DNA of 64,000 bases from Allocoleopsis franciscana PCC 7113. Lineage in GTDB: Bacteria > Cyanobacteriota > Cyanobacteriia > Cyanobacteriales > Coleofasciculaceae. Shown here in pieces: positions 1-63,969 of the stretch. The notes beneath the pieces are model-generated. The model did no database searches and was not told where the DNA came from. It worked only from the letters and a program-made list of their open reading frames with translations. Numbering within the stretch: the stretch's first letter is position 1; every line of letters begins with the position of its first letter. Location: contig NC_019738.1 in NCBI RefSeq assembly GCF_000317515.1, forward strand, positions 1,745,623 through 1,809,622, in the 5' to 3' direction. The translations under genes and the position numbers were made by a program.

Positions 1-3000
1 ATTGTGTTTGGCCCCAATGCCAGCTTGAACGTTCCAGCTTCGTTCACCGCGACTACAGCGACGGGTATTGGCCTTGATAATAATCAGTTATTCAGCGCCA
101 CCGAACCCAATAACTACGCGACCTTGGTCGGTCAACCTAGTAACTTCAACTTTGCCACATCCCAGACACCAGGGGCAGTGGTGAATATGGGTCAACTGAG
201 TGTCAGCCAGGGGAACAACTTATCTTTGGTGGGCGGTACGGTAGTCAGTACGGGTCAATTAAATGCGCCAGGAGGACAAATTAACATTACGGCTGTTCCT
301 GGTCAGAGTACAGTACTCCTGAGTGCCCCTGGGAACGTGCTCAGCCTAGAGGTTCCAGCCTCAGAAGTCTCCACGATCACTCCTAGTACCTTACCCCAGC
401 TATTGACAGGCAGCGGTCAATCTACGGGTTTGGCAGTTAATAGTTCAGGTCAGGTAGAACTGACGGGGTCGAATATTCCCATCCACAACGGAGATGTGGT
501 GATCAAAGGAAGTGTAACAGCCCAAACAGCCACGGTGTCCGCTCAAAATAATCTGATTTTAGTAGAAAGCCAGTTGCAAACAACAGGTGACTTGAATCTA
601 CTGGCGCAGAATACAGTGATGGTGAGAGATACAGCCACCAATCCTTTCCTCGCCCAGGCAGGAGGGAACCTTTATATTCAGGGTAATTACGAGATTGACA
701 TCCTGGCACTGAATACTCCATATATACCCCCCTTTCAAAGTGGTGGCAACTTGAGTTTTGTCAGTGATGGAATTATTTCTTTTGATAGTCACTCCCAGAG
801 TGGGGGGAGTATCTTGTTTCACAACTTATCAGGCGGCCCCGCCAACGTCTACAGCTATTATGACCCCATCATTACCTCCGGAGGTAATATTGCCCTAGGC
901 AACTACACAGGGGCGGCTCTCAAGGTAGATTCAGGTGGCACTATTACAGCCGGAGATATTACGATTACCCAACCGGATACTCTCTCGATTCCTACTACCG
1001 ATCCAGATTATGTGATTTTGACCACTACTCCATCGCTGATTCTGAAGGCAGCAGGGAGCATTAATGTAGGGAATATCAATACTTCGGATCAAAGTGTAGG
1101 TGATGCTGGGCATGTGAGGTTGACCGCCCAAGGTAACATTACGACCGGCGATATCAACGCCAGAGATTTGGGTGCGGGAAATGCGGGTTCTGTCTCATTG
1201 TTATCCGCTGGGGGCAACATTCAAGTTGAAAATGTCAATACAACCAACCTGAACGCAGGCAATTCCGGTTCTATAACGATGATCGGCGCTGGCACCGTTA
1301 CACACGGCGAATTGAATTGGAATAACTTTGGAACGGGAAATCAAGCAAGCAGCCCTGTAATCATGCAGAATCTAGGGGGCACCAACACTCCTCCACCAAC
1401 AGGCGGTACGACGACTCCCCCACCAGGCGGCACAACTCCCCCACCAGGCGGCACAACGACTCCTCCACCAACGGGTGGTACCACAACTCCCCCACCAGGC
1501 GGCACAACTCCCCCACCAGGCGGTACCACAACTCCAACACCAACGGGCGGTACCACGACTCCAACACCACCAGGCGGCACAACGACTCCTCCACCAACGG
1601 GTGGTACCACAACTCCCCCACCAGGCGGCACAACTCCCCCACCAGGCGGCACAACGACTCCTCCACCAACGGGTGGTACCACAACTCCCCCACCAGGCGG
1701 TACCACAACTCCAACACCACCAGGCGGTACCACAACTCCAACACCACCAGGCGGTACCACAACTCCAACACCAACAGGTGGTACCACAACTCCAACACCA
1801 ACGGGCGGTACCACAACTCCAACACCAACGGGCGGTACCACAACTCCAACACCAACGGGCGGTACCACAACTCCAACACCAACGGGCGGTACCACAACTC
1901 CAACACCAACGGGTGGTACCACAACTCCAACACCAACGGGCGGTACCACAACTCCAACACCAACAGGCGGTACCACAACTCCAACACCAACAGGCGGTAC
2001 CACAACTCCAACACCAACAGGCGGTACCACAACTCCAACACCAACAGGTGGTACAACGACTCCAACACCAACGGGCGGTACCACAACTCCAACACCAACA
2101 CCTACAGGCGGCAGTAAAACGACTCCTTCATCGGGTAGTACAACGACTACCTCCGGTGACAGTATCACTACTCCCGCCGGAGGTAGTAAAGATAATGCTT
2201 CTGGCGGAAGTACAAACAGTACTTCTAATACCTGTCTATCCTGTACGTCCACTGATAGCACTGTGACTACACCCAGTGGCATCGCAAATCATCAATCTAG
2301 TGCCACTACCAGCACGACATCCCGTAGCAGCACAGTGGCTACATCCGATGGCAGTACACCCAATTCACCCAATAGTGGTGGAGCAAATAATCCATCAGGG
2401 CAGGGGAATACTAATCATGTTCATCTGGGTGGAACCAGCGATTCGCCAACAACGAGCTCATCACCACAACAGTTAGTCGGGAACTCGTCTTCAAGTGAAG
2501 TGAAGCCTAATTTAGTGTCTTCTCTGGAAGAACCTTTGACAAATCAATTCGAGCAATATTTTGGGCACCCTGACAAGACTCCGACTGTAACTCTGGCAGA
2601 CGCTCGTAATATTCTTCGTAAAGTGGAGAAAGCAACTGGCGTCAAACCCGCACTCATTTATGCAACCTTTGTGCCTCAACGGATTGTAGCCAATGGGGTA
2701 AGCAATGTATCAACTCCAGACCAAAACTCAAACCTTGAAACTCCAAATTCTTCATACCAGTTGGAATTAGTGTTGGTGACAGGGGAGGGTGAACCGATTC
2801 GTCGTCAAGTAACTGGAGCAACGCGAGAGAACGTTCTCCAAGTGGTTTATCAATTTCAGTCTGAAGTGACGAATGCTCAAAGTGGACGTGACTACGAGGC
2901 TCCTAGTAAACAACTCTATCAATGGCTAATCGCTCCTCTGGATGCTGAGATCAAAGCACGAGGTATCCAAAATCTGTCTTTCATCATGGATAGCGGCTTG

Positions 3001-3786
3001 CGATCTCTTCCCATCGCGGCTCTTTATGATGGTCAACAGTTTCTGGTTGAGAAATATAGCCTTGGCTTGATGCCTAGTCTCAGTCTGATTACTGATACGA
3101 ACTACAAGAGCATTAAAGACTTACAAGTTCTGGCGATGGGAGCGTCAAAATTCCCAGAGAAAAGCCCTTTACCGGCGGTACCTGTCGAGTTATCGCTCAT
3201 TACACCTTCTTTGTGGCAGGGCAAGGCATTCCTGAACGATAACTTTACCCTAGCGAATCTGAAGGAACAACGAGAGCAAAAGCCTTTTGGATTGATTCAC
3301 CTGGCAACCCATGCCACCTTCCGTGCCGGAGCACCAGGCAACTCTTACATTGAATTTTGGGATACGAAGCTACAGCTAGACCAATTGCCTGGGCTAGGTT
3401 GGGGTAATCCACCTGTGGAGTTGTTGGTATTGAGCGCCTGTAAGACAGCGTTGGGAGATCAGCAAGCCGAGTTAGGTTTTGCGGGGTTAGCCGTACAAGC
3501 TGGGGTAAAATCAGCGATCGCATCCCTCTGGTCTGTGAGTGATGAAGGAACTTTAGCCCTCATGACACAGCTATACCAGCAGTTGAAAGTATCACCCATT
3601 AAAGCAGGAGCGCTGCAACAGGCACAAATAGCGATGCTCAGAGGGCAAGTTTCTCTCAAAGAAGGTAAGCTGTTTTCGGGTAAAGAGACTGTACCTTTAC
3701 CACCAGAACTGGTCAAGCTAGGAACCCGGAATTTGACACATCCCTATTTTTGGGCTGGTTTTACGATGATTGGCAGTCCTTGGTAA
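1..3786 (+). CDS. Large secreted protein, 5'-partial: haemagglutinin/TPS-like N-terminal domain, Thr/Pro-rich repeat linker, C-terminal CHAT (caspase-HetF-like) protease domain
   Basis: The ORF is open to the window start. N-terminal Gly/Asn/Thr-rich beta-helix-like sequence (NASLNVPASF...GQINITAVPG) is typical of cyanobacterial 'filamentous haemagglutinin N-terminal domain' proteins. C-terminal region has CHAT hallmarks: LIHLATHATF...ELLVLSACKTALG gives the His/Cys dyad spacing. Cyanobacteria commonly carry haemagglutinin-domain plus CHAT proteins. Confidence 0.8.
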   Translation: MVFGPNASLNVPASFTATTATGIGLDNNQLFSATEPNNYATLVGQPSNFNFATSQTPGAVVNMGQLSVSQGNNLSLVGGTVVSTGQLNAPGGQINITAVPGQSTVLLSAPGNVLSLEVPASEVSTITPSTLPQLLTGSGQSTGLAVNSSGQVELTGSNIPIHNGDVVIKGSVTAQTATVSAQNNLILVESQLQTTGDLNLLAQNTVMVRDTATNPFLAQAGGNLYIQGNYEIDILALNTPYIPPFQSGGNLSFVSDGIISFDSHSQSGGSILFHNLSGGPANVYSYYDPIITSGGNIALGNYTGAALKVDSGGTITAGDITITQPDTLSIPTTDPDYVILTTTPSLILKAAGSINVGNINTSDQSVGDAGHVRLTAQGNITTGDINARDLGAGNAGSVSLLSAGGNIQVENVNTTNLNAGNSGSITMIGAGTVTHGELNWNNFGTGNQASSPVIMQNLGGTNTPPPTGGTTTPPPGGTTPPPGGTTTPPPTGGTTTPPPGGTTPPPGGTTTPTPTGGTTTPTPPGGTTTPPPTGGTTTPPPGGTTPPPGGTTTPPPTGGTTTPPPGGTTTPTPPGGTTTPTPPGGTTTPTPTGGTTTPTPTGGTTTPTPTGGTTTPTPTGGTTTPTPTGGTTTPTPTGGTTTPTPTGGTTTPTPTGGTTTPTPTGGTTTPTPTGGTTTPTPTGGTTTPTPTGGTTTPTPTPTGGSKTTPSSGSTTTTSGDSITTPAGGSKDNASGGSTNSTSNTCLSCTSTDSTVTTPSGIANHQSSATTSTTSRSSTVATSDGSTPNSPNSGGANNPSGQGNTNHVHLGGTSDSPTTSSSPQQLVGNSSSSEVKPNLVSSLEEPLTNQFEQYFGHPDKTPTVTLADARNILRKVEKATGVKPALIYATFVPQRIVANGVSNVSTPDQNSNLETPNSSYQLELVLVTGEGEPIRRQVTGATRENVLQVVYQFQSEVTNAQSGRDYEAPSKQLYQWLIAPLDAEIKARGIQNLSFIMDSGLRSLPIAALYDGQQFLVEKYSLGLMPSLSLITDTNYKSIKDLQVLAMGASKFPEKSPLPAVPVELSLITPSLWQGKAFLNDNFTLANLKEQREQKPFGLIHLATHATFRAGAPGNSYIEFWDTKLQLDQLPGLGWGNPPVELLVLSACKTALGDQQAELGFAGLAVQAGVKSAIASLWSVSDEGTLALMTQLYQQLKVSPIKAGALQQAQIAMLRGQVSLKEGKLFSGKETVPLPPELVKLGTRNLTHPYFWAGFTMIGSPW
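1384..2110 (+). repeat. Near-perfect 27-bp tandem array of about 26 units (ggcggtaccacaactccaacaccaacg and variants) encoding (TTTPTPTGG)n inside the CHAT protein
   Basis: Directly visible in the sequence. The N-terminal units are a PPGG/PPTGG variant and the later units are identical TPTPTGG copies. The repeat also generates three spurious long ORFs on other frames and strands. Confidence 0.95.
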
Positions 3787-4654: not shown

Positions 4655-6178
4655 TTAGGCTTCTGACGAGATCAGCGATTCCATCGCTTTTTGCAGGTCT
4701 TCAGTGAGATCCGCCACCGCTTGTCGAGCACCCTGACGACTCGCCTGATACATAGGATAGCGTTCTGAAACCGATAGAGGCTGCCCAATGGTCATCTGTA
4801 CCCGTTGTCGGCCTAAGCGAGGGCGCTGAAAAGGGCTATGACCCTTAATGCGAGTGACCATATCCCATAATAGTAAGGTCGTCTCAGCAAATCGCTCTAC
4901 GGTAGGCTTTTCAATCACGTAGTAGCCAGTAACAGCCACAAACGTTTCCACTAAACGCATGTGCCACATCCGCAAGTTGGCTTCCTCCGCAATGCGATCG
5001 GCTAATCCTCTCTCCAAAGGAGAAATGGCTTTAACATTCTTCAACTCTTCTCGATAGATATAATTCCAGCCTGCTTGCTCTAACCGACGACAGCGATCAA
5101 TTAAACTCCCCTTCGCAGACAAGTCAAAATACTCTTCGGCTACCTGTAGCGCCACGTTGAGTAAGGCTTGGAGGCGAACGGCTAACCCTTCATTGAGGTG
5201 GGTTGCTGACTCTGGGGAGGGAGGAGTGGTATCCCCTGTCACCGTTGGCAAGGTTTGATGATAGAAGCGAGTGTAAAACTCTTCCATGAACGACAATAAG
5301 CGATCGCTCAAACGATAAAGCCTGCAATAAAGCCAGTTTTGAGCTTTCGGGGTTAGGGTTTGAGTGGCAGGGGTTAACTCTAAGCTTCCCTCCTCAACGG
5401 GTAAACCACTCGCCGCTTCTAATTCGCTTAACAGCTTTTCTATGGCTTTCCAGGGCGCTTCAACGTAACGATACTGAATTCCGATGGGTAAAATGCACAC
5501 CTCTTGGGTTCGATCTGCTTTGTGTACATCTTCAGCACACCAAAATCCAAATTGTGCAATCCCCGGTTCTAGGGGACTGATAATCTCATTATGTCCATTC
5601 GTCGCTCCTTCAGGGGAAGCCAACATCGGAAACTGACCATTGGCAAATAAGTGACGAATCGAGCGTAACCCCATCCAATCGGCCTTACCCCGCTGGATCG
5701 GAGTGCCACCCAATCGAGAATAGAGCCAAGCCATTTGTGAACCCGCCCACAGAGGAATGCCCCGATCATAAATAAAATGGCTATGAATGGGGGACTGTAA
5801 CGATATCCCCTGTTGTTTGGCAACCTGGGGTACCAACCGCCACAGCAAGTGAGCCAGACAAAGGGGGTCATCAACACTGGGATGCCGAAACGCCATTAAG
5901 AAACGAATTTTACCCTCCTGAAACTGACGATATAAATCGACCAAAACCTCGACGTTGTCTGCTTCAATTTGGCTAATCGCTGTGTGCCGACGCCTCCACA
6001 TCGGCAGCACTTGTTGGGCGACTCTTAGCACTAAGGGATTAAAATTCGGTGGGATAAATTCTAGAGGGGGCTGAGCCTGAATCATCAAATCTGGCAAGGG
6101 GGTTGTCTCCTGAGTGGCGATCAAATTGGGCAGCAGCACTCGTGTGACGCCGATGCTCCTAACATCACTACTGCACAT
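4655..6178 (-). CDS. Phospholipid/glycerol acyltransferase family protein (PlsC-like HX4D acyltransferase with long C-terminal extension)
   Basis: FRHPSVDDP matches the HX4D catalytic motif, and ASPEGATNGH resembles the FPEGTR block of lysophospholipid acyltransferases. The product is larger than canonical PlsC, so exact substrate is unknown. Confidence 0.55.
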   Translation of the reverse strand: MCSSDVRSIGVTRVLLPNLIATQETTPLPDLMIQAQPPLEFIPPNFNPLVLRVAQQVLPMWRRRHTAISQIEADNVEVLVDLYRQFQEGKIRFLMAFRHPSVDDPLCLAHLLWRLVPQVAKQQGISLQSPIHSHFIYDRGIPLWAGSQMAWLYSRLGGTPIQRGKADWMGLRSIRHLFANGQFPMLASPEGATNGHNEIISPLEPGIAQFGFWCAEDVHKADRTQEVCILPIGIQYRYVEAPWKAIEKLLSELEAASGLPVEEGSLELTPATQTLTPKAQNWLYCRLYRLSDRLLSFMEEFYTRFYHQTLPTVTGDTTPPSPESATHLNEGLAVRLQALLNVALQVAEEYFDLSAKGSLIDRCRRLEQAGWNYIYREELKNVKAISPLERGLADRIAEEANLRMWHMRLVETFVAVTGYYVIEKPTVERFAETTLLLWDMVTRIKGHSPFQRPRLGRQRVQMTIGQPLSVSERYPMYQASRQGARQAVADLTEDLQKAMESLISSEA

Positions 6179-6518
6179 CCTAAGATTTAGCTGAAATAAT
6201 GATTATGCACTCTAGCGATACAACCAGTACCTCGACTGTCATAAATTCTTTGGGTCATGCGGCGGAAAGTTCCGAACAACAAACCCCTATCCAGGAAACA
6301 TGAGCAATTCCAGAAAGCTGATTTCTCTGCCTCATGATTGAGCTTTCGGGTGGTATTTCTCTGGAATTATTGCTAGATTAATCCAGGCTTTTTTGAATTA
6401 GAGAACTCAGTCACCTTTGTAACTGTCACACTCACCACAGCAGGAGTGTATAAAATAGTATTTTTGTCTTGTAGTCCCTCGCAACCAGGGATACATATTA
6501 TCTAAAATTTTCCAACAT

Positions 6519-6556
6519 GAAAAAATAATCTCCTCTCAGACAAAGAGAGGAGATAG
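6519..6556 (-). terminator. Rho-independent terminator hairpin downstream of the carotenoid oxygenase gene
   Basis: Perfect 10-bp stem atctcctctc / gagaggagat (6528-6537 and 6545-6554) with a 7-nt loop, followed on the minus strand by a U-run (plus-strand aaaaaataa). Confidence 0.6.
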
Positions 6557-6590
6557 GTTTTGTGTTTAATAACCTTGACTTACGGATTCA

Positions 6591-8321
6591 TCAACGGTTC
6601 AAAACTTGATCGGGTTGGTTGAAGATAAATTCCCTAGGAACTTTGGCTAAACTCCGCAAAGCACAGGAAACCCGATCAACACGATAGGAAGGAGGAGCAG
6701 AAACCAGCTTCTCAAAATACTCAGAATGTAAGGTGAAGCCAAAGTTAACTGTATCTGGCAGAGTCAGCTTGGCAATCGGGCCGTTCTTGAGGTTATCGGC
6801 AGCAAATAACCAGGCTTCCAGATGATTTTCGGCAAATACTTTCGTGAAAATATATCCCTTACCTTGAGGAATATATTGAATACTGTCGAGAAGACAGTGA
6901 TCGGGGAACACATAAAAATCCAGGAATTCATGCCCTAAGCTCGGTAACTCCCGCTCCGGATGTTCTTGTTGTTCTTTTTCCAACTGCTCGGTCAGCATTT
7001 TCCAATCTTCTGCTAGAGGAATGCGAGCTAAAACAGAAGGTAAATTGTGGGTGGGCAGTTTCTGATCAGTCAGGATACGGTTAGGATGATCCCGGAAAGC
7101 AAGGTACTGACGACGGCAGATAAAATCTCGCCAATACCCACTATAGCCTTGGTAAATTGCCGAATAACCTGAAGCGGTAAACTGCTCCCGTGGGTCAGCC
7201 GTATAGAGCATGGTGGAATACCATCCGGGATGGATAAACGCTTCTTCTTGAATGACTTGACCATCACCAATAACTACTTTACGTAGAACACCTGGGTCAA
7301 AACCAAACATCCAGGGAATGCCCCAATATTCCTCGCTGTAGGGTTTGCCCGTAAAGTGCATAACATCACAGGGTTCCAATGATTGAGTCAGGCTAATTGT
7401 TCCCTGTTGGACAGCCACCATCTGAATGTTTCCATCGTTATGGCGGTAGTTACAGAGGAAATGGTAGCTATCACCTGGAAAGGTAACCAGGCGTGCGGGA
7501 ACTTTATAGTTGGCGGCTGTTAAGTCTTTACGGTCTACGACATAGACCTGAGTATGAGGATAAGCATTGGTGGGTGGAACCTTAAGCCCCATGAGTGTGG
7601 TTAAGCCCATTTGGAAAGGCATATCGGGAATCATCGCGCATTCTTCGGTGAGGATGATGGTATGGGGGCTACCATCGAGTCGAGTTCCATCCAACTCCCA
7701 GTGCTTTAACGTGCCTTTACCGTCCCAAACGGTAATATAAACCTGGCTAATCATGTCATAAAACAATTGCCCTGGACGCGGCACACATTTCAATTCGCAG
7801 CTAATTAACTCACCCGTCTCTGGGTCGTAAAAAGGGTGAGCTGTATTTGCCACCATGGGGAAGAATGAGAGGGGAACACTGATGATATGTTCGTCAAAGT
7901 ATCCCACCGGCGTAATCGTTTCTAGGGTGACCGGATCGATTTCCCAGTAGCGTCCCGCATCGGCGGTGAGAAGCAGTCGCCCATTCATATTGACCACTCC
8001 AGTGTTTGCTGGCTCGGCAATACCAAAGAGACTCATTCTTGCCGGAAAAAAAGCTCGCTGCCGCCAAGTGAGGGGAAGCAAATCTTGCCAAAAACTATCC
8101 CAGGTATTAACTCGTTTGCACAGGAGTTTGACTTTCCCATTTTGTGGAGCCAGATCCCAACGGATAGTGACACCCGCACCCCCAAACAAATGACGTTCTC
8201 CAATTTGGTGATAGGGAGCCGCCACGAAAATATGACCCGATAGTTCCTGAGGCCAAGCTCCAGAGATGGTAGCTTCAAATTGACCAATGCTGGAACGAGT
8301 AAAATTTTGAACAGATACCAT
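6591..8321 (-). CDS. Carotenoid cleavage oxygenase (RPE65/CCD family; apocarotenoid oxygenase-like)
   Basis: Contains the family signature TAHPFYDPETGEL (cf. conserved AHPKxDPxTGEL), plus several conserved His and an N-terminal GHIFVAAPY block in the place of the GPG/NGP block. Length about 576 aa is compatible. Confidence 0.7.
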   Translation of the reverse strand: MVSVQNFTRSSIGQFEATISGAWPQELSGHIFVAAPYHQIGERHLFGGAGVTIRWDLAPQNGKVKLLCKRVNTWDSFWQDLLPLTWRQRAFFPARMSLFGIAEPANTGVVNMNGRLLLTADAGRYWEIDPVTLETITPVGYFDEHIISVPLSFFPMVANTAHPFYDPETGELISCELKCVPRPGQLFYDMISQVYITVWDGKGTLKHWELDGTRLDGSPHTIILTEECAMIPDMPFQMGLTTLMGLKVPPTNAYPHTQVYVVDRKDLTAANYKVPARLVTFPGDSYHFLCNYRHNDGNIQMVAVQQGTISLTQSLEPCDVMHFTGKPYSEEYWGIPWMFGFDPGVLRKVVIGDGQVIQEEAFIHPGWYSTMLYTADPREQFTASGYSAIYQGYSGYWRDFICRRQYLAFRDHPNRILTDQKLPTHNLPSVLARIPLAEDWKMLTEQLEKEQQEHPERELPSLGHEFLDFYVFPDHCLLDSIQYIPQGKGYIFTKVFAENHLEAWLFAADNLKNGPIAKLTLPDTVNFGFTLHSEYFEKLVSAPPSYRVDRVSCALRSLAKVPREFIFNQPDQVLNR

Positions 8322-8534: not shown

Positions 8535-9860
8535 TTAAGAATTTAATTCCTGATCAACTGTCGAATTCCGATTAATGACCACTAACACCTTATCAACTCG
8601 ATTGCCGTCCATATCCATCACTTCCAACCGCATATCCCGCCACTCAAAGCAATCAGTCGCCTTGGGAATACGTCCTAACTGAGTAACAACAAAACCACCC
8701 ACGGTGTGATAGTTTCCTCGATGCTCTCCCAGCAACTCCTCAATGTTAAATAATTCAAAAAACTCCTCCACCGACAACATTCCATCCACCAACCATGAAC
8801 CATCCTCACGCTGTACCGCTTGAGGTTGATCACTGGTATCGACCGAAGGAATATCCCCAACAATCTCTTCTAAAATATCGTTGAGAGTTACCAAACCTTG
8901 AATCACACCATACTCATCAACAACGATCGCAATGTGAGTACTGCTTTGCTTGAACAACTCTAAAATTCGCAACCCAGGTGTGCTTTCTGGAACATAAACC
9001 GGGCGATGCAATGCACTCGTCAAGTCAAGGGGCTTATTCAATAGACAGTTGCTGAGCAAATCGTTGACATGGATGATGCCAAGGACATTATCCAGTTCCC
9101 CCTGGCAGACTAAATATCGAGAATGGGCGCTATCCATCATCACCTGCCGATTCGTTTCCGCTGAGTCGTCTAGATCAAGCCAGACAATTTCAGGGCGAGG
9201 CGTCATCAAAGCCCTCACTCGCCGATCGCCTAAACGAAACACCCGTTCCACCATATCTTGTTCGGCTTCCTCAAAGGTTCCCGCCTCAGTGCCTTGAGCG
9301 ATCAAAACCTTAACTTCTTCTTGGGTTACCAGGGGTTCTGTAGAGGGCGTGATGTTCAACAGCCGCATCATGAGCTCCGTGGAAAGACTCAACAACTGAA
9401 CGATGGGGTAAGTCAGTTTAGACAACATCTGCATCGGCATGGCGACAGCCGAGGCAATTTTTTCCGGGTTGTTTAACGCCAACCGCTTAGGCATCAGTTC
9501 GCCAATCACCAGCGTGAGATAAGTAATAATCAAAATCGCTGAGATCGAAGCGATCGCATCACTAAAGGGTGCCAGTGGAGGAACCCACTTTAACAAAGTC
9601 CCTACTCTCGCCGATATCACCGATTCACCAAAAGCACCGGATATGATTGCCAGAAGCGTTATTCCAATCTGAACGGTACCCAGAAACTGATTGGGGGAAT
9701 TCGCCAGTTGTAAGGCAATACCCGCTTGGATATTCCCCTGGTTGGCTATCTGTTGCAGGCGCACCTTCCGGACTGAGACAATCGCCATCTCTGACATCAC
9801 AAAGATGCCGTTAGCAACGATCAGTAGGAAAACAATTAGAATTTCCACAGGGAAAGACAA
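8535..9860 (-). CDS. HlyC/CorC family transporter (DUF21 membrane domain, tandem CBS, CorC_HlyC C-terminal domain)
   Basis: N-terminal four hydrophobic helices, central CBS-pair region (ILGIIHVNDLL, VVDEYGVIQGLVTLNDILEEIVGDI) and C-terminal transporter-associated domain are typical of the CNNM/CorC family. Confidence 0.85.
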   Translation of the reverse strand: MSFPVEILIVFLLIVANGIFVMSEMAIVSVRKVRLQQIANQGNIQAGIALQLANSPNQFLGTVQIGITLLAIISGAFGESVISARVGTLLKWVPPLAPFSDAIASISAILIITYLTLVIGELMPKRLALNNPEKIASAVAMPMQMLSKLTYPIVQLLSLSTELMMRLLNITPSTEPLVTQEEVKVLIAQGTEAGTFEEAEQDMVERVFRLGDRRVRALMTPRPEIVWLDLDDSAETNRQVMMDSAHSRYLVCQGELDNVLGIIHVNDLLSNCLLNKPLDLTSALHRPVYVPESTPGLRILELFKQSSTHIAIVVDEYGVIQGLVTLNDILEEIVGDIPSVDTSDQPQAVQREDGSWLVDGMLSVEEFFELFNIEELLGEHRGNYHTVGGFVVTQLGRIPKATDCFEWRDMRLEVMDMDGNRVDKVLVVINRNSTVDQELNS

Positions 9861-41668: not shown

Positions 41669-42538
41669 ATGACAAATCAAAAGCATATTGAATTACTTGC
41701 TCAAGGAGTAAATGTATGGAATGCTTGGATGGAAAAAAATCACCATTTAATACCTAATCTCCGAGAAGCCAACCTGAGGGAAGCTCACCTCCGATATGTC
41801 AATTTGTGTACAGCGGATTTATCCGAAGCAGATTTGTTTAATGCTAAGCTCAGCGGTGCCGACCTGACGGGAGCGAACCTCACTAGAGCGAACCTCTTTT
41901 TAGTCGATTTCTCAACAGCCGACCTCACGAGAGTTGATCTCACTGGAGCGAACCTCACTAGAGCGAACCTGTTTTTCACCAATCTCACGGGAGCTAATTT
42001 GACGGGAGCTAATTTGACGGGAGCTAACCTCAAAGAAGCCAATTTTAGCAATGCCGGCCTCTGTCGTGCTGACCTTAGTGGTGCTAATCTCAATAGAGCT
42101 GACCTCAGTAAAGCCGACCTAAGAAATATCAACCTGAGTGGTGCTGACCTGAGTGGTGCTAACCTTGGTAAAGCCAACCTGAGTGGTGCTAACCTCTGCG
42201 CGGCTAACCTCAGTGGTGCCAACCTCTGCGCGGCTAACCTGAGTGGTACTAACCTCTGCGCTGCTAACTTCAAAAGAGCTAACCTTAGTGGTGCCAGTTT
42301 GAGCAATACTCATGCGTTGGGTACGAACTTTGAACAGGCAAGACTCACGGGTGTTGAGCTAGAAGATTGGAGTATTAACTCTGACTCCAATTTTGATGGT
42401 GTGATTTGTGACTATGTTTATTTGAAGGCGCAGCATCAAGATCGTCTCCCTATGAGTAGAAAATTTGTCCCAGGAGAGTTCATCAGTTTATTTTCCCGAC
42501 AAATGAACTACCCGAATCTATATTCCAAAGGCGCATAA
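41669..42538 (+). CDS. Pentapeptide repeat protein
   Basis: About 35 consecutive A(D/N)L(S/T)GA-type pentapeptides. The minus-strand ORF 41785-42306 is its mirror-image artefact. Confidence 0.85.
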   Translation: MTNQKHIELLAQGVNVWNAWMEKNHHLIPNLREANLREAHLRYVNLCTADLSEADLFNAKLSGADLTGANLTRANLFLVDFSTADLTRVDLTGANLTRANLFFTNLTGANLTGANLTGANLKEANFSNAGLCRADLSGANLNRADLSKADLRNINLSGADLSGANLGKANLSGANLCAANLSGANLCAANLSGTNLCAANFKRANLSGASLSNTHALGTNFEQARLTGVELEDWSINSDSNFDGVICDYVYLKAQHQDRLPMSRKFVPGEFISLFSRQMNYPNLYSKGA

Positions 42539-63573: not shown

Positions 63574-63969
63574 TTAAAGGGTATCTGGGTCGATATTCAA
63601 CTCCCGTAGTTTCGCGGCTAATCGCTCAGCCCGTTGTGTTTCCTGTTCAGCCCGTTGTGTTTCCTGTTCAGCTCGTTGTGTTTCCTGTTCAGCTCGTTGT
63701 GTTGCCTGTTCAGCCCGTTGTATTTCTTGTTCGGCTACTTCTTCCGGTGTGGGAACTAGCTCACCTTCTGCGGTGAAAAAGCGTAATTGTCTTTGATGAA
63801 TTCCCAAATATAACTGTAGTTGTTGACTCCACAACAATCCTTGAGAATTAGGTTCTAGCGATTGGTATTCACCATCTAATAAATGGAATCCCTCAAATTC
63901 TAAGCTGTCCGGGTCAAACCAAAAGTAATCCGGTGTGCGAAATGTATCTTGATATATTTGCTTTTTCAA
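63574..63969 (-). CDS. C-terminal part of an Uma2-family-like protein with (QRAEQET)n repeats; probably 5'-partial because the N-terminus runs off the window
   Basis: RTPDYFWFDPDSLEFEGFHLLDGEYQSLEPN aligns with RIPYYGIYIVSHGTLEMYHLVNTSYERMTPN of the 56651-57478 product, and both end in L(G/N)IDxxxL. The stop codon lies inside the IS target duplication. Confidence 0.5.
   Translation of the reverse strand: MKKQIYQDTFRTPDYFWFDPDSLEFEGFHLLDGEYQSLEPNSQGLLWSQQLQLYLGIHQRQLRFFTAEGELVPTPEEVAEQEIQRAEQATQRAEQETQRAEQETQRAEQETQRAERLAAKLRELNIDPDTL

Follow-up and report, generated by a model that had tools for sequence, protein, structure and literature searches.

What kind of element is a long, nearly perfect tandem repeat that lies between two conserved parts of a bacterial gene, how does it evolve, and does its length matter to the encoded protein? 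These questions are raised by the gene at the start of a 64,000-nucleotide stretch (the window) of the chromosome of the cyanobacterium Allocoleopsis franciscana PCC 7113 (contig NC_019738.1, positions 1,745,623 to 1,809,622 of the forward strand). The gene, which immediately precedes AFZ17383 on the finished chromosome and is called here the TPS-CHAT gene, combines a two-partner secretion (TPS) domain and a beta-helix with a caspase-like CHAT protease module. The array in its middle is best read as an in-frame coding variable-number tandem repeat (VNTR) whose product is a Thr/Pro/Gly spacer joining the TPS/beta-helix part to the CHAT module, a reading to which we give a probability of roughly three in four.

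Codon-by-codon parsing places the array at window positions 1381-2112, where 732 bp in 28 in-frame units encode 244 amino acids. The corresponding entry of Tandem Repeats Finder (TRF; 1387-2100, period 27, 27.6 copies, 85% matches, score 875) is the strongest repeat by far in the 64-kb window. A first-pass annotation of this DNA had described about 26 near-identical 27-bp units at 1384-2110; the array is indeed present, but the count and the limits had to be corrected, and the units are of mixed lengths (21, 24, 27 and 33 bp, each a multiple of 3). Likewise, the near-identity of the units applies to the distal half only, and the proximal half is built differently, as a higher-order repeat. The proximal units 1-13, which are 27, 24 or 21 bp long, mix the types TTTPPPTGG, TTTPPPGG and TTPPPGG with TTTPTPTGG and TTTPTPPGG, and form a 72-bp higher-order repeat, of which the copies at 1453-1524 and 1579-1650 are identical at 71 of 72 positions. 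The distal units 14-28 consist of two TTTPTPPGG, twelve TTTPTPTGG (1756-2079) and a terminal 33-bp unit encoding TTTPTPTPTGG. Mean pairwise unit identity is 95% in units 16-27 as against 80% in units 1-13, and 20 of the 28 units have an exact twin within the array. Just over half of the units (15/28) differ from the 27-bp consensus ACCACAACTCCAACACCAACGGGCGGT at no more than three positions, and against these 15 matches in the window there are 0 in 100 dinucleotide-preserving shuffles; exact TTTPTPTGG is encoded by 13 units (unit 7 and units 16-27). Thr accounts for 48% of the encoded residues, Pro for 29% and Gly for 23%, with a single Asn otherwise; the segment holds 117 threonines, and Thr and Pro together make up 77%. 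It contains no hydrophobic residues and is therefore predicted to be non-globular. At the DNA level the array has a G+C content of 61%, against 48% in the remainder of the gene.

The repeat is evidently read in one frame. The frame-1 open reading frame (ORF) is open from base 1 of the window and runs through the array to the stop codon of the gene. Units 16-27 vary only at unit positions 3, 6, 21 and 24, all of which are third-codon positions and synonymous in frame 1; given that one third of the possible single unit changes are synonymous, four out of four would occur by chance with a probability of about 1%. The three long ORFs that cross the array in other frames had been called artefacts of the repeat at the outset, and this judgement holds: they are confined to the array and translate (in the order in which they appear in Table 1) to low-complexity V/G/P, L/V/E/W/Y/R and Q/L/V/P/H repeats. 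Coding in these frames or on the opposite strand was rejected, since the variation between units is synonymous in frame +1 only. A phase-variation switch was rejected as well: every change in unit number adds or removes a multiple of 3 nt and leaves the reading frame intact.

The evolution of the array can be followed in four further alleles. Orthologue L003, from a metagenome-assembled genome labelled Stenomitos, was retrieved by a search with the protein's N-terminal part; L013 (Microcoleus sp. FACHB-53) and L017 (Microcoleus sp. FACHB-1, with an identical protein in ZQ-A2) were retrieved via look-ups of the neighbouring metallophosphoesterase, and P0278, a JGI metagenome allele, by exact cluster look-up. 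When further near-identical alleles were sought in JGI metagenomes, only two distant loci were found, one of them apparently from the same organism as L005, and searches for N- and C-terminal homologues returned mostly fragments of <950 aa, with the PCC 7113 protein not among the matches and with no unit counts to be had. Outside the array, the PCC 7113 gene is 88-90% identical in DNA to L003, L013 and L017, and the 1380 nt before the array align among the four orthologues with 0-1 gaps. The arrays themselves are 244, 186, 155, 146 and 129 aa long in the five alleles, with collinear flanks; in DNA this corresponds to 732 nt in PCC 7113 and 558, 465 and 438 nt in L003, L013 and L017, respectively, and the array of 129 aa is that of P0278. 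The length hypervariability that had been proposed from the PCC 7113 sequence is thus borne out, and a constant array length across strains, named beforehand as the observation that would argue against active expansion, is not what is found. The frame is intact through the arrays of L003, L013 and L017 too, again with unit lengths that are multiples of 3. Within a cluster of proteins at 90% identity, the differences between lengths of 1327, 1318 and 1301 aa are fully explained by the array.

The content of the array has changed along with its length. Units 1-3 alone are positionally common to PCC 7113 and L003, and each lineage has a dominant unit of its own. In PCC 7113 this is TTTPTPTGG (x12), a type absent from L003, L013, L017 and P0278; in L003 it is a 99-bp higher-order unit made of TTTPPPSGG, TTTPPSTGG and TTSPPPGG; and in the FACHB/JGI lineage it is TTTTPPTSG (x8, x7 or x4), the DNA copies of which are 100% identical. 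All 28 units of PCC 7113 find their best match within their own array (identity 0.79-1.00, compared with 0.70-0.86 to L003, the orthologue with 88% identity), and mean unit identity is 0.82 within the array versus 0.70 to L003. Such a pattern is the signature of concerted evolution with recent local duplication, as the first-pass annotation had supposed from the distal units, and the absence of the TTTPTPTGG block from all orthologues agrees with it.

Unit-number polymorphism is also observed between close strains. The flanks of the array in FACHB-53 and FACHB-1 are 99.5% and 98.2% identical, and the two strains carry 18 and 17 units, respectively: relative to FACHB-53, FACHB-1 has gained one TTAPPTSGG unit, which sits in a resolvable part of the array in this short-read assembly, and has lost two TTTTPPT[SG]G units, the place of the loss being marked by a hybrid unit. 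These comparisons show the array to be a coding VNTR in which entire units come and go and in which the units of each lineage are homogenised. Slippage during replication, or unequal recombination among the units, probably accounts for these changes, which would in turn generate both the lineage-specific homogenised blocks and the differing unit numbers in close strains.

The array separates two parts of the protein that can be assigned with some precision (Table 1). The 5' end of the gene lies outside the window, and the whole protein comprises ~1,416 residues. The TPS copy in the window scores 42.5 bits with Pfam PF05860 (cut-off 33.5), with aa 1-152 covering profile positions 96-250 of 252, and the gene start is placed ~155 codons upstream, the window-initial IVFG being residue 156 of the L013 protein. 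It had been pointed out that the TPS assignment would be doubtful if the true start lay inside the window. The alignment beginning at profile position 96, and orthologues with ~155 more N-terminal residues that include a signal peptide, place the start outside, and the check comes out in favour of the assignment. The orthologues L003, L013 and L017 have a complete TPS domain (142.9 bits in L003) and a signal peptide ending in AQA before QP; the stretch directly before this QP reads LSLLPWVACLICPWNVAQA, and NPNQ[FL]D and MNPAGIVFG motifs follow, corresponding to the conserved NPNL- and NPNGI-type motifs of TpsA proteins. The window begins at IVFG, directly after the second motif, and the signal peptide and these motifs lie upstream of it. 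The N-terminal part of L003 also matches the HMW1 secretion domain 2ODL (E=4.4e-8), and 274 homologues of residues 153-460 are named 'filamentous hemagglutinin N-terminal domain-containing protein'. As a separate observation, a GTG start and a conserved ~40-residue extension, VF[RT]ISGWLVTNPAE...IIP[EK]G, lie ahead of the hydrophobic core of the signal peptide (L003 9536-9730; L013 14540-14730, minus strand; L004 9518-9720); in this it seems to resemble the extended signal peptides found on TpsA and autotransporter proteins.

Downstream of the array, a non-repetitive segment of ~130 residues (27% Ser, 21% Thr, 11% Gly, 8% Asn) continues the linker; it shows 49-51 gap positions between orthologues, and C-terminal homologue fragments begin right after it (77% query coverage). 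The CHAT module that follows scores 238 bits with Pfam CHAT PF12770 (residues 967-1259, window 2899-3777). Searched against the PDB by sequence, with the single sequence and with a profile, the module had no match, and the fold search alone succeeded: an AlphaFold2 model (pLDDT 72, pTM 0.79) has as its best Foldseek match Csx29/TPR-CHAT of Craspase (E=4e-13, query TM-score 0.57), followed by separase (E=8e-10), the anti-sigma factor DdvA and SAVED-CHAT. His1104 (in HLATHA, codon 3310-3312) and Cys1147 (in LSACKT, codon 3439-3441) are invariant in 32 aligned homologues and presumably correspond to the His/Cys dyad of clan CD peptidases. These two are candidate catalytic residues, and proteolytic activity is predicted. 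By profile, fold and His/Cys pair, then, this is a CHAT protease, and Pfam and composition together confirm the earlier description of the array as a Thr/Pro-rich linker between a TPS-type part and a CHAT part.

Table 1. Features of the TPS-CHAT gene and of other parts of the window (window coordinates)
Feature	Position	Strand	Basis
TPS domain, C-terminal part	1..456	+	Pfam PF05860
Beta-helix shaft of TpsA-like passenger, Gly/Thr/Asn/Ser-rich	457..1380	+	homologue names, orthologue alignment
Proximal array zone, units 1-13	1381..1701	+	27/24/21 bp units, unit parsing
Distal homogenised zone, units 14-28	1702..2112	+	unit parsing
Non-repetitive Ser/Thr/Gly/Asn-rich linker continuation, aa 705-835	2113..2505	+	composition
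CHAT (caspase-like, clan CD) protease module, ~430 residues	2506..3783	+	Pfam, fold, His/Cys
Stop codon of TPS-CHAT gene	3784..3786	+	ORF scan
Artefactual ORF, 313 aa	1341..2282	-	low-complexity repeat translation
Artefactual ORF	1361-2101	-	low-complexity repeat translation
Artefactual ORF	1475-2266	+	low-complexity repeat translation
507-residue protein conserved beside the locus	4655-6178	-	
Pentapeptide-repeat protein	41669-42538	+	
ORF with 21-bp tandem repeat	63574-63969	-	
21-bp tandem repeat	63626-63732		

The protein resembles the TpsA exoproteins filamentous haemagglutinin (FHA/FhaB), HMW1 and CdiA in its TPS domain, which in the orthologues follows a signal peptide, in its beta-helix shaft and in ending with a functional module. 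It differs from them in that the C-terminal module is a CHAT protease, which is not listed in a review of TPS systems that also covers FHA maturation (PMC5422565), and in that there is no adjacent tpsB gene in the window or beside any orthologue examined. By profile, and by the motifs of its orthologues, the protein would be classed with the TpsA proteins, but by gene neighbourhood it would not. The search for a TpsB (ShlB/POTRA) partner, which had been suggested as a check on the upstream sequence, gave no match among the ORFs scanned over the downstream 60 kb of the window (every ORF of at least 400 aa and some smaller ones), within 10 kb of L003-L007, L013 and L017, or in the more distant TPS loci L008-L010 and L012, where TPR and TPR-CHAT genes are found instead; the 10 kb upstream in the orthologues hold an S8 subtilase and an ADC-like protein. 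TPS systems with non-operon arrangements of tpsB are known (PMC5422565), and the transporter may therefore be encoded elsewhere in the genome.

The syntenic order around the gene begins with an S8 subtilase that has a P-domain and an ADC-like protein; after the TPS-CHAT gene come a metallophosphoesterase convergent to it, a 480/507-residue protein and RPE65. Four neighbouring proteins in the window are exact matches to AFZ17383, AFZ17384, AFZ17387 and AFZ17388 of PCC 7113. The subtilase (704-730 aa), whose P-domain is of the proprotein-convertase type, precedes the TPS-CHAT gene in L003 (5928-8970), L004 (5999-8188), L005 (5715-7826), L013 (15181-18111) and L017 (15154-18084), and the ADC-like protein (~225 aa) lies between the two genes in L003, L013 and L017. 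SphB1-like maturation by this subtilase was considered and dropped, as the subtilase is without an obvious signal peptide. The 507-residue protein on the other side has only a weak, sub-threshold Pfam match to Acyltransferase (E=0.004); it is variously named 'Glutamate mutase subunit E' or '1-acyl-sn-glycerol-3-phosphate acyltransferase', and is given starts that make it 480, 494 or 507 aa long.

The position of the linker, at the junction of beta-helix and CHAT module, is conserved across the family, while its sequence is not. The linker is (GNGNGGTTTPP)n in L004, (TNPDPDPD)n in L005, PVTPVTPVT in L006, and (PT)n followed by (AE)n in L007; partial proteins have (SPSPEP)n, (SP)n, (GTGTNTGGN)n or S/N/T-rich repeats. 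The same ~430-residue CHAT module is also found on other scaffolds, with Big_1, DUF11, Cadherin_5, HAF repeats or PF18886 (P0247, P0249, P0259, P0270, P0235), and there too a low-complexity stretch, proline-rich in most cases, precedes it. Among 42 CHAT-module hits with at least 60 upstream residues, Pro ranks in the top four by frequency immediately before CHAT in most. With the position kept and the sequence variable, what is conserved would be composition rather than a motif: a hydrophilic, proline-rich stretch predicted to be unfoldable.

TPS and CHAT recur together, fused or as neighbouring genes. At the more distant cyanobacterial loci L010 (9596-18533) and L012 (2-5696), a TPS-protein gene is directly followed by a separate TPR-CHAT gene, whose product has a signal-peptide-like N-terminus at both loci, and in L008 (1920-9085) a TPS-protein gene is directly followed by a gene for a TPR protein. 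In L007, the TPS-CHAT gene has a divergent upstream neighbour (5538-8051, minus strand) that codes for a CHASE2-CHAT protein. The arrangement in L010 and L012 suggests that exported CHAT proteases work together with TPS proteins, and a functional partnership is compatible with the recurrence of TPS and CHAT, whether fused or adjacent as in L010 and L012, and with the lack of an adjacent TpsB in the loci examined.

How might such a linker act? The array and the ~130 Ser/Thr-rich residues behind it would most likely form an extended, proline-stiffened tether, which would space the CHAT module from the beta-helix and uncouple the two mechanically. On polyproline-II geometry the contour length would grow by no more than ~3 nm per 9-residue unit, and selection would act on frame and on a proline-rich, hydrophilic composition, not on exact sequence or length. 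Several points weigh against this reading. No observation made here ties the length of the linker to function; linker composition varies freely across the family, such that neutral drift of a tolerated low-complexity segment fits equally well; and the location of the CHAT module could be extracellular or periplasmic. In addition, the 28-unit count in PCC 7113 rests on one finished assembly, and short-read unit counts are unreliable in homogeneous blocks such as the 216 bp of identical units in FACHB-53.

The first of the alternatives to a functional spacer, which we regard as possible though clearly less probable, is that the array is a neutral low-complexity expansion, made by slippage and tolerated in a disordered inter-domain linker, whose length has no functional meaning. 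Selection would then remove only frameshifts and variants that are hydrophobic or create stops. Linker sequence and length are indeed unconstrained across orthologues and paralogues, and some members have only a short linker, such as that of L006. On the other hand, proline-rich low-complexity sequence precedes CHAT in most members examined, even on different N-terminal scaffolds, and the variation within the homogeneous block is purely synonymous. Neutrality of length is compatible with both of these counter-points.

A second proposal, held with about the same reserve, is that O-glycans on the 117 threonines stiffen the linker and shield it from proteases, making it a mucin-like stalk. In the first-pass annotation this stalk would be exposed on the surface and its unit number would set the reach of the protease head, which presupposes an extracellular CHAT module. 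The analysis supports the evolutionary part of that interpretation well, but not its glycosylation, surface exposure or neighbouring TpsB. Glycosylation of the array threonines is possible: the high Thr and Pro content described above would suit it, glycosylated P/S/T linkers and repeat stalks are documented elsewhere (PMC3490864, PMC6151902, PMC3794999), and some TpsA proteins are glycosylated, as is HMW1 by HMW1C (PMC5422565). In the distant homologues P0075 and P0049, the signal peptide and TPS domain are preceded by an in-frame fusion to a GT2 glycosyltransferase domain, which we treat as a lead only. The DxD motif is degenerate in one of these two proteins, and the L006 gene has a GT2-like remnant ahead of it in the same frame (9320-9700). 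Nevertheless, there is no glycosyltransferase gene beside the TPS-CHAT gene in the window or in five syntenic orthologues, and hydroxyl-poor orthologous linkers exist; the Asp/Pro/Asn linker of L005 argues that neither glycosylation nor hydroxyl-rich sequence is a general requirement.

It is unlikely, though not negligibly so, that the array is real and its unit number or order has been mis-assembled in the window. Contigs assembled at k=31 from two independent runs, SRR610358 and SRR29904084, match the window at 100% identity along 12.5 and 7.2 kb, and both stop within the array at window position 2071, the last position with a unique 31-mer. The CHAT gene is truncated at the end of ten more short-read contigs from the FACHB lineage, and four of these stop where the array has its distal end; the L004 array contains an N-gap; and most database homologues are fragments that end or start at the linker, many of them labelled 'partial'. 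Mis-assembly of the window itself is countered by its origin in a finished chromosome, by independent reads that confirm the 3' junction, by a frame that is intact across 28 units, and by the heterogeneous proximal half, which has enough unique variants for assembly.

Comparably unlikely is a tether that spans the envelope or arrests secretion. In this model the CHAT module is kept in the periplasm, like the prodomain of FhaB or the C-terminal half of CdiA, and the unfoldable linker threads or pauses in the outer-membrane transporter, its length matching the envelope thickness. Export of TpsA proteins begins with the N-terminus, and the C-terminal parts of FhaB and CdiA stay in the periplasm; the TPR-CHAT genes with signal-peptide-like N-termini directly downstream of the TPS genes in L010 and L012 would fit this picture as well. 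However, there is no TpsB near any locus examined, and no arrest element is marked in the sequence.

The spacer reading places the array among familiar kinds of sequence: it is an ordinary kind of feature, namely a coding VNTR that forms a proline-rich linker. The Ser-Asp repeats of staphylococcal ClfA/Sdr proteins are likewise long, in-frame, low-complexity repeats of strain-variable number that join a functional domain (PMC3794999). These are Ser-Asp dipeptides in sortase-anchored proteins, in contrast to Thr/Pro/Gly nonapeptides on a TpsA-type carrier in a diderm cyanobacterium, and they have the glycosyltransferases SdgA/SdgB encoded nearby, of which no counterpart was seen beside the TPS-CHAT gene. 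The Pro/Thr linkers of cellulases are similar in consisting of Pro and Thr/Ser, in lacking hydrophobic residues and in serving as inter-domain spacers, and they keep their length and composition despite little conservation of sequence (PMC3490864, PMC6151902). They differ in that they are usually 20-60 residues long, are not recent perfect DNA repeats and have demonstrated glycosylation, whereas the array described here encodes 244 residues in 27-bp units that are up to 100% identical.

The company that the CHAT module keeps is less familiar. The CHAT proteases known so far work in the cytoplasm, in signalling or defence, and have TPR, SAVED or transmembrane partners. The present protein shares the Pfam CHAT domain, the fold and the His/Cys pair with Csx29/TPR-CHAT of Craspase, separase, DdvA and SAVED-CHAT, but here the module is C-terminal on a protein with a secretion domain and has no sequence-detectable relative in the PDB. 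Polymorphic toxins with caspase-like C-terminal domains offer another parallel, in that a caspase-fold peptidase is the C-terminal-most part of a large filamentous secreted protein and that the same module occurs on several N-terminal scaffolds (Zhang et al. 2012, PMC3482391). In that survey, delivery by the type V secretion system (T5SS) is not listed for caspase-domain toxins, nor are cyanobacteria among the lineages with T5SS toxins (Zhang et al. 2012, PMC3482391). A CdiA-like toxin of contact-dependent inhibition, or another polymorphic toxin, was rejected: the translation of the TPS-CHAT ORF contains no VENN pretoxin motif, the CHAT module is not polymorphic and matches the remainder of the gene in conservation (88-90% nt identity), and there is no immunity-like gene downstream, where the next gene is the convergent, syntenic metallophosphoesterase. 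In the literature searched, no paper was found that combines 'CHAT domain' with hemagglutinin or two-partner secretion.

Elsewhere in the window, the pentapeptide-repeat protein listed in Table 1 accounts for TRF hits of 15, 30, 45 and 75 bp at 41864-42294, and a 21-bp tandem repeat (5.1 copies, 93% matches) lies within an ORF that has no Pfam match.

For the TPS-CHAT family, the array explains why the genes are broken or 'partial' in most short-read assemblies, with contigs ending in the linker, and it provides a ready strain-typing marker for Allocoleopsis and Microcoleus. It also documents fast concerted evolution in a cyanobacterial secreted-protein gene, with units that change between strains whose flanks are 98-99.5% identical, and it points to a large, uncharacterised family in which a type Vb secretion domain and a caspase-like CHAT protease are combined. 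The more interesting question beside the repeat is the role of exported CHAT proteases in filamentous cyanobacteria. At the speculative end, and with long odds against it, the TPS-CHAT proteins might be a cyanobacterial class of exported caspase-like proteases that act on the envelope or on neighbouring cells and filaments, with a rapidly evolving linker that tunes their reach through the thick envelope and sheath. If this were true, such proteases could have roles in, for example, kin discrimination, programmed cell death or sheath remodelling, and the reach of the protease would be specific to the strain.

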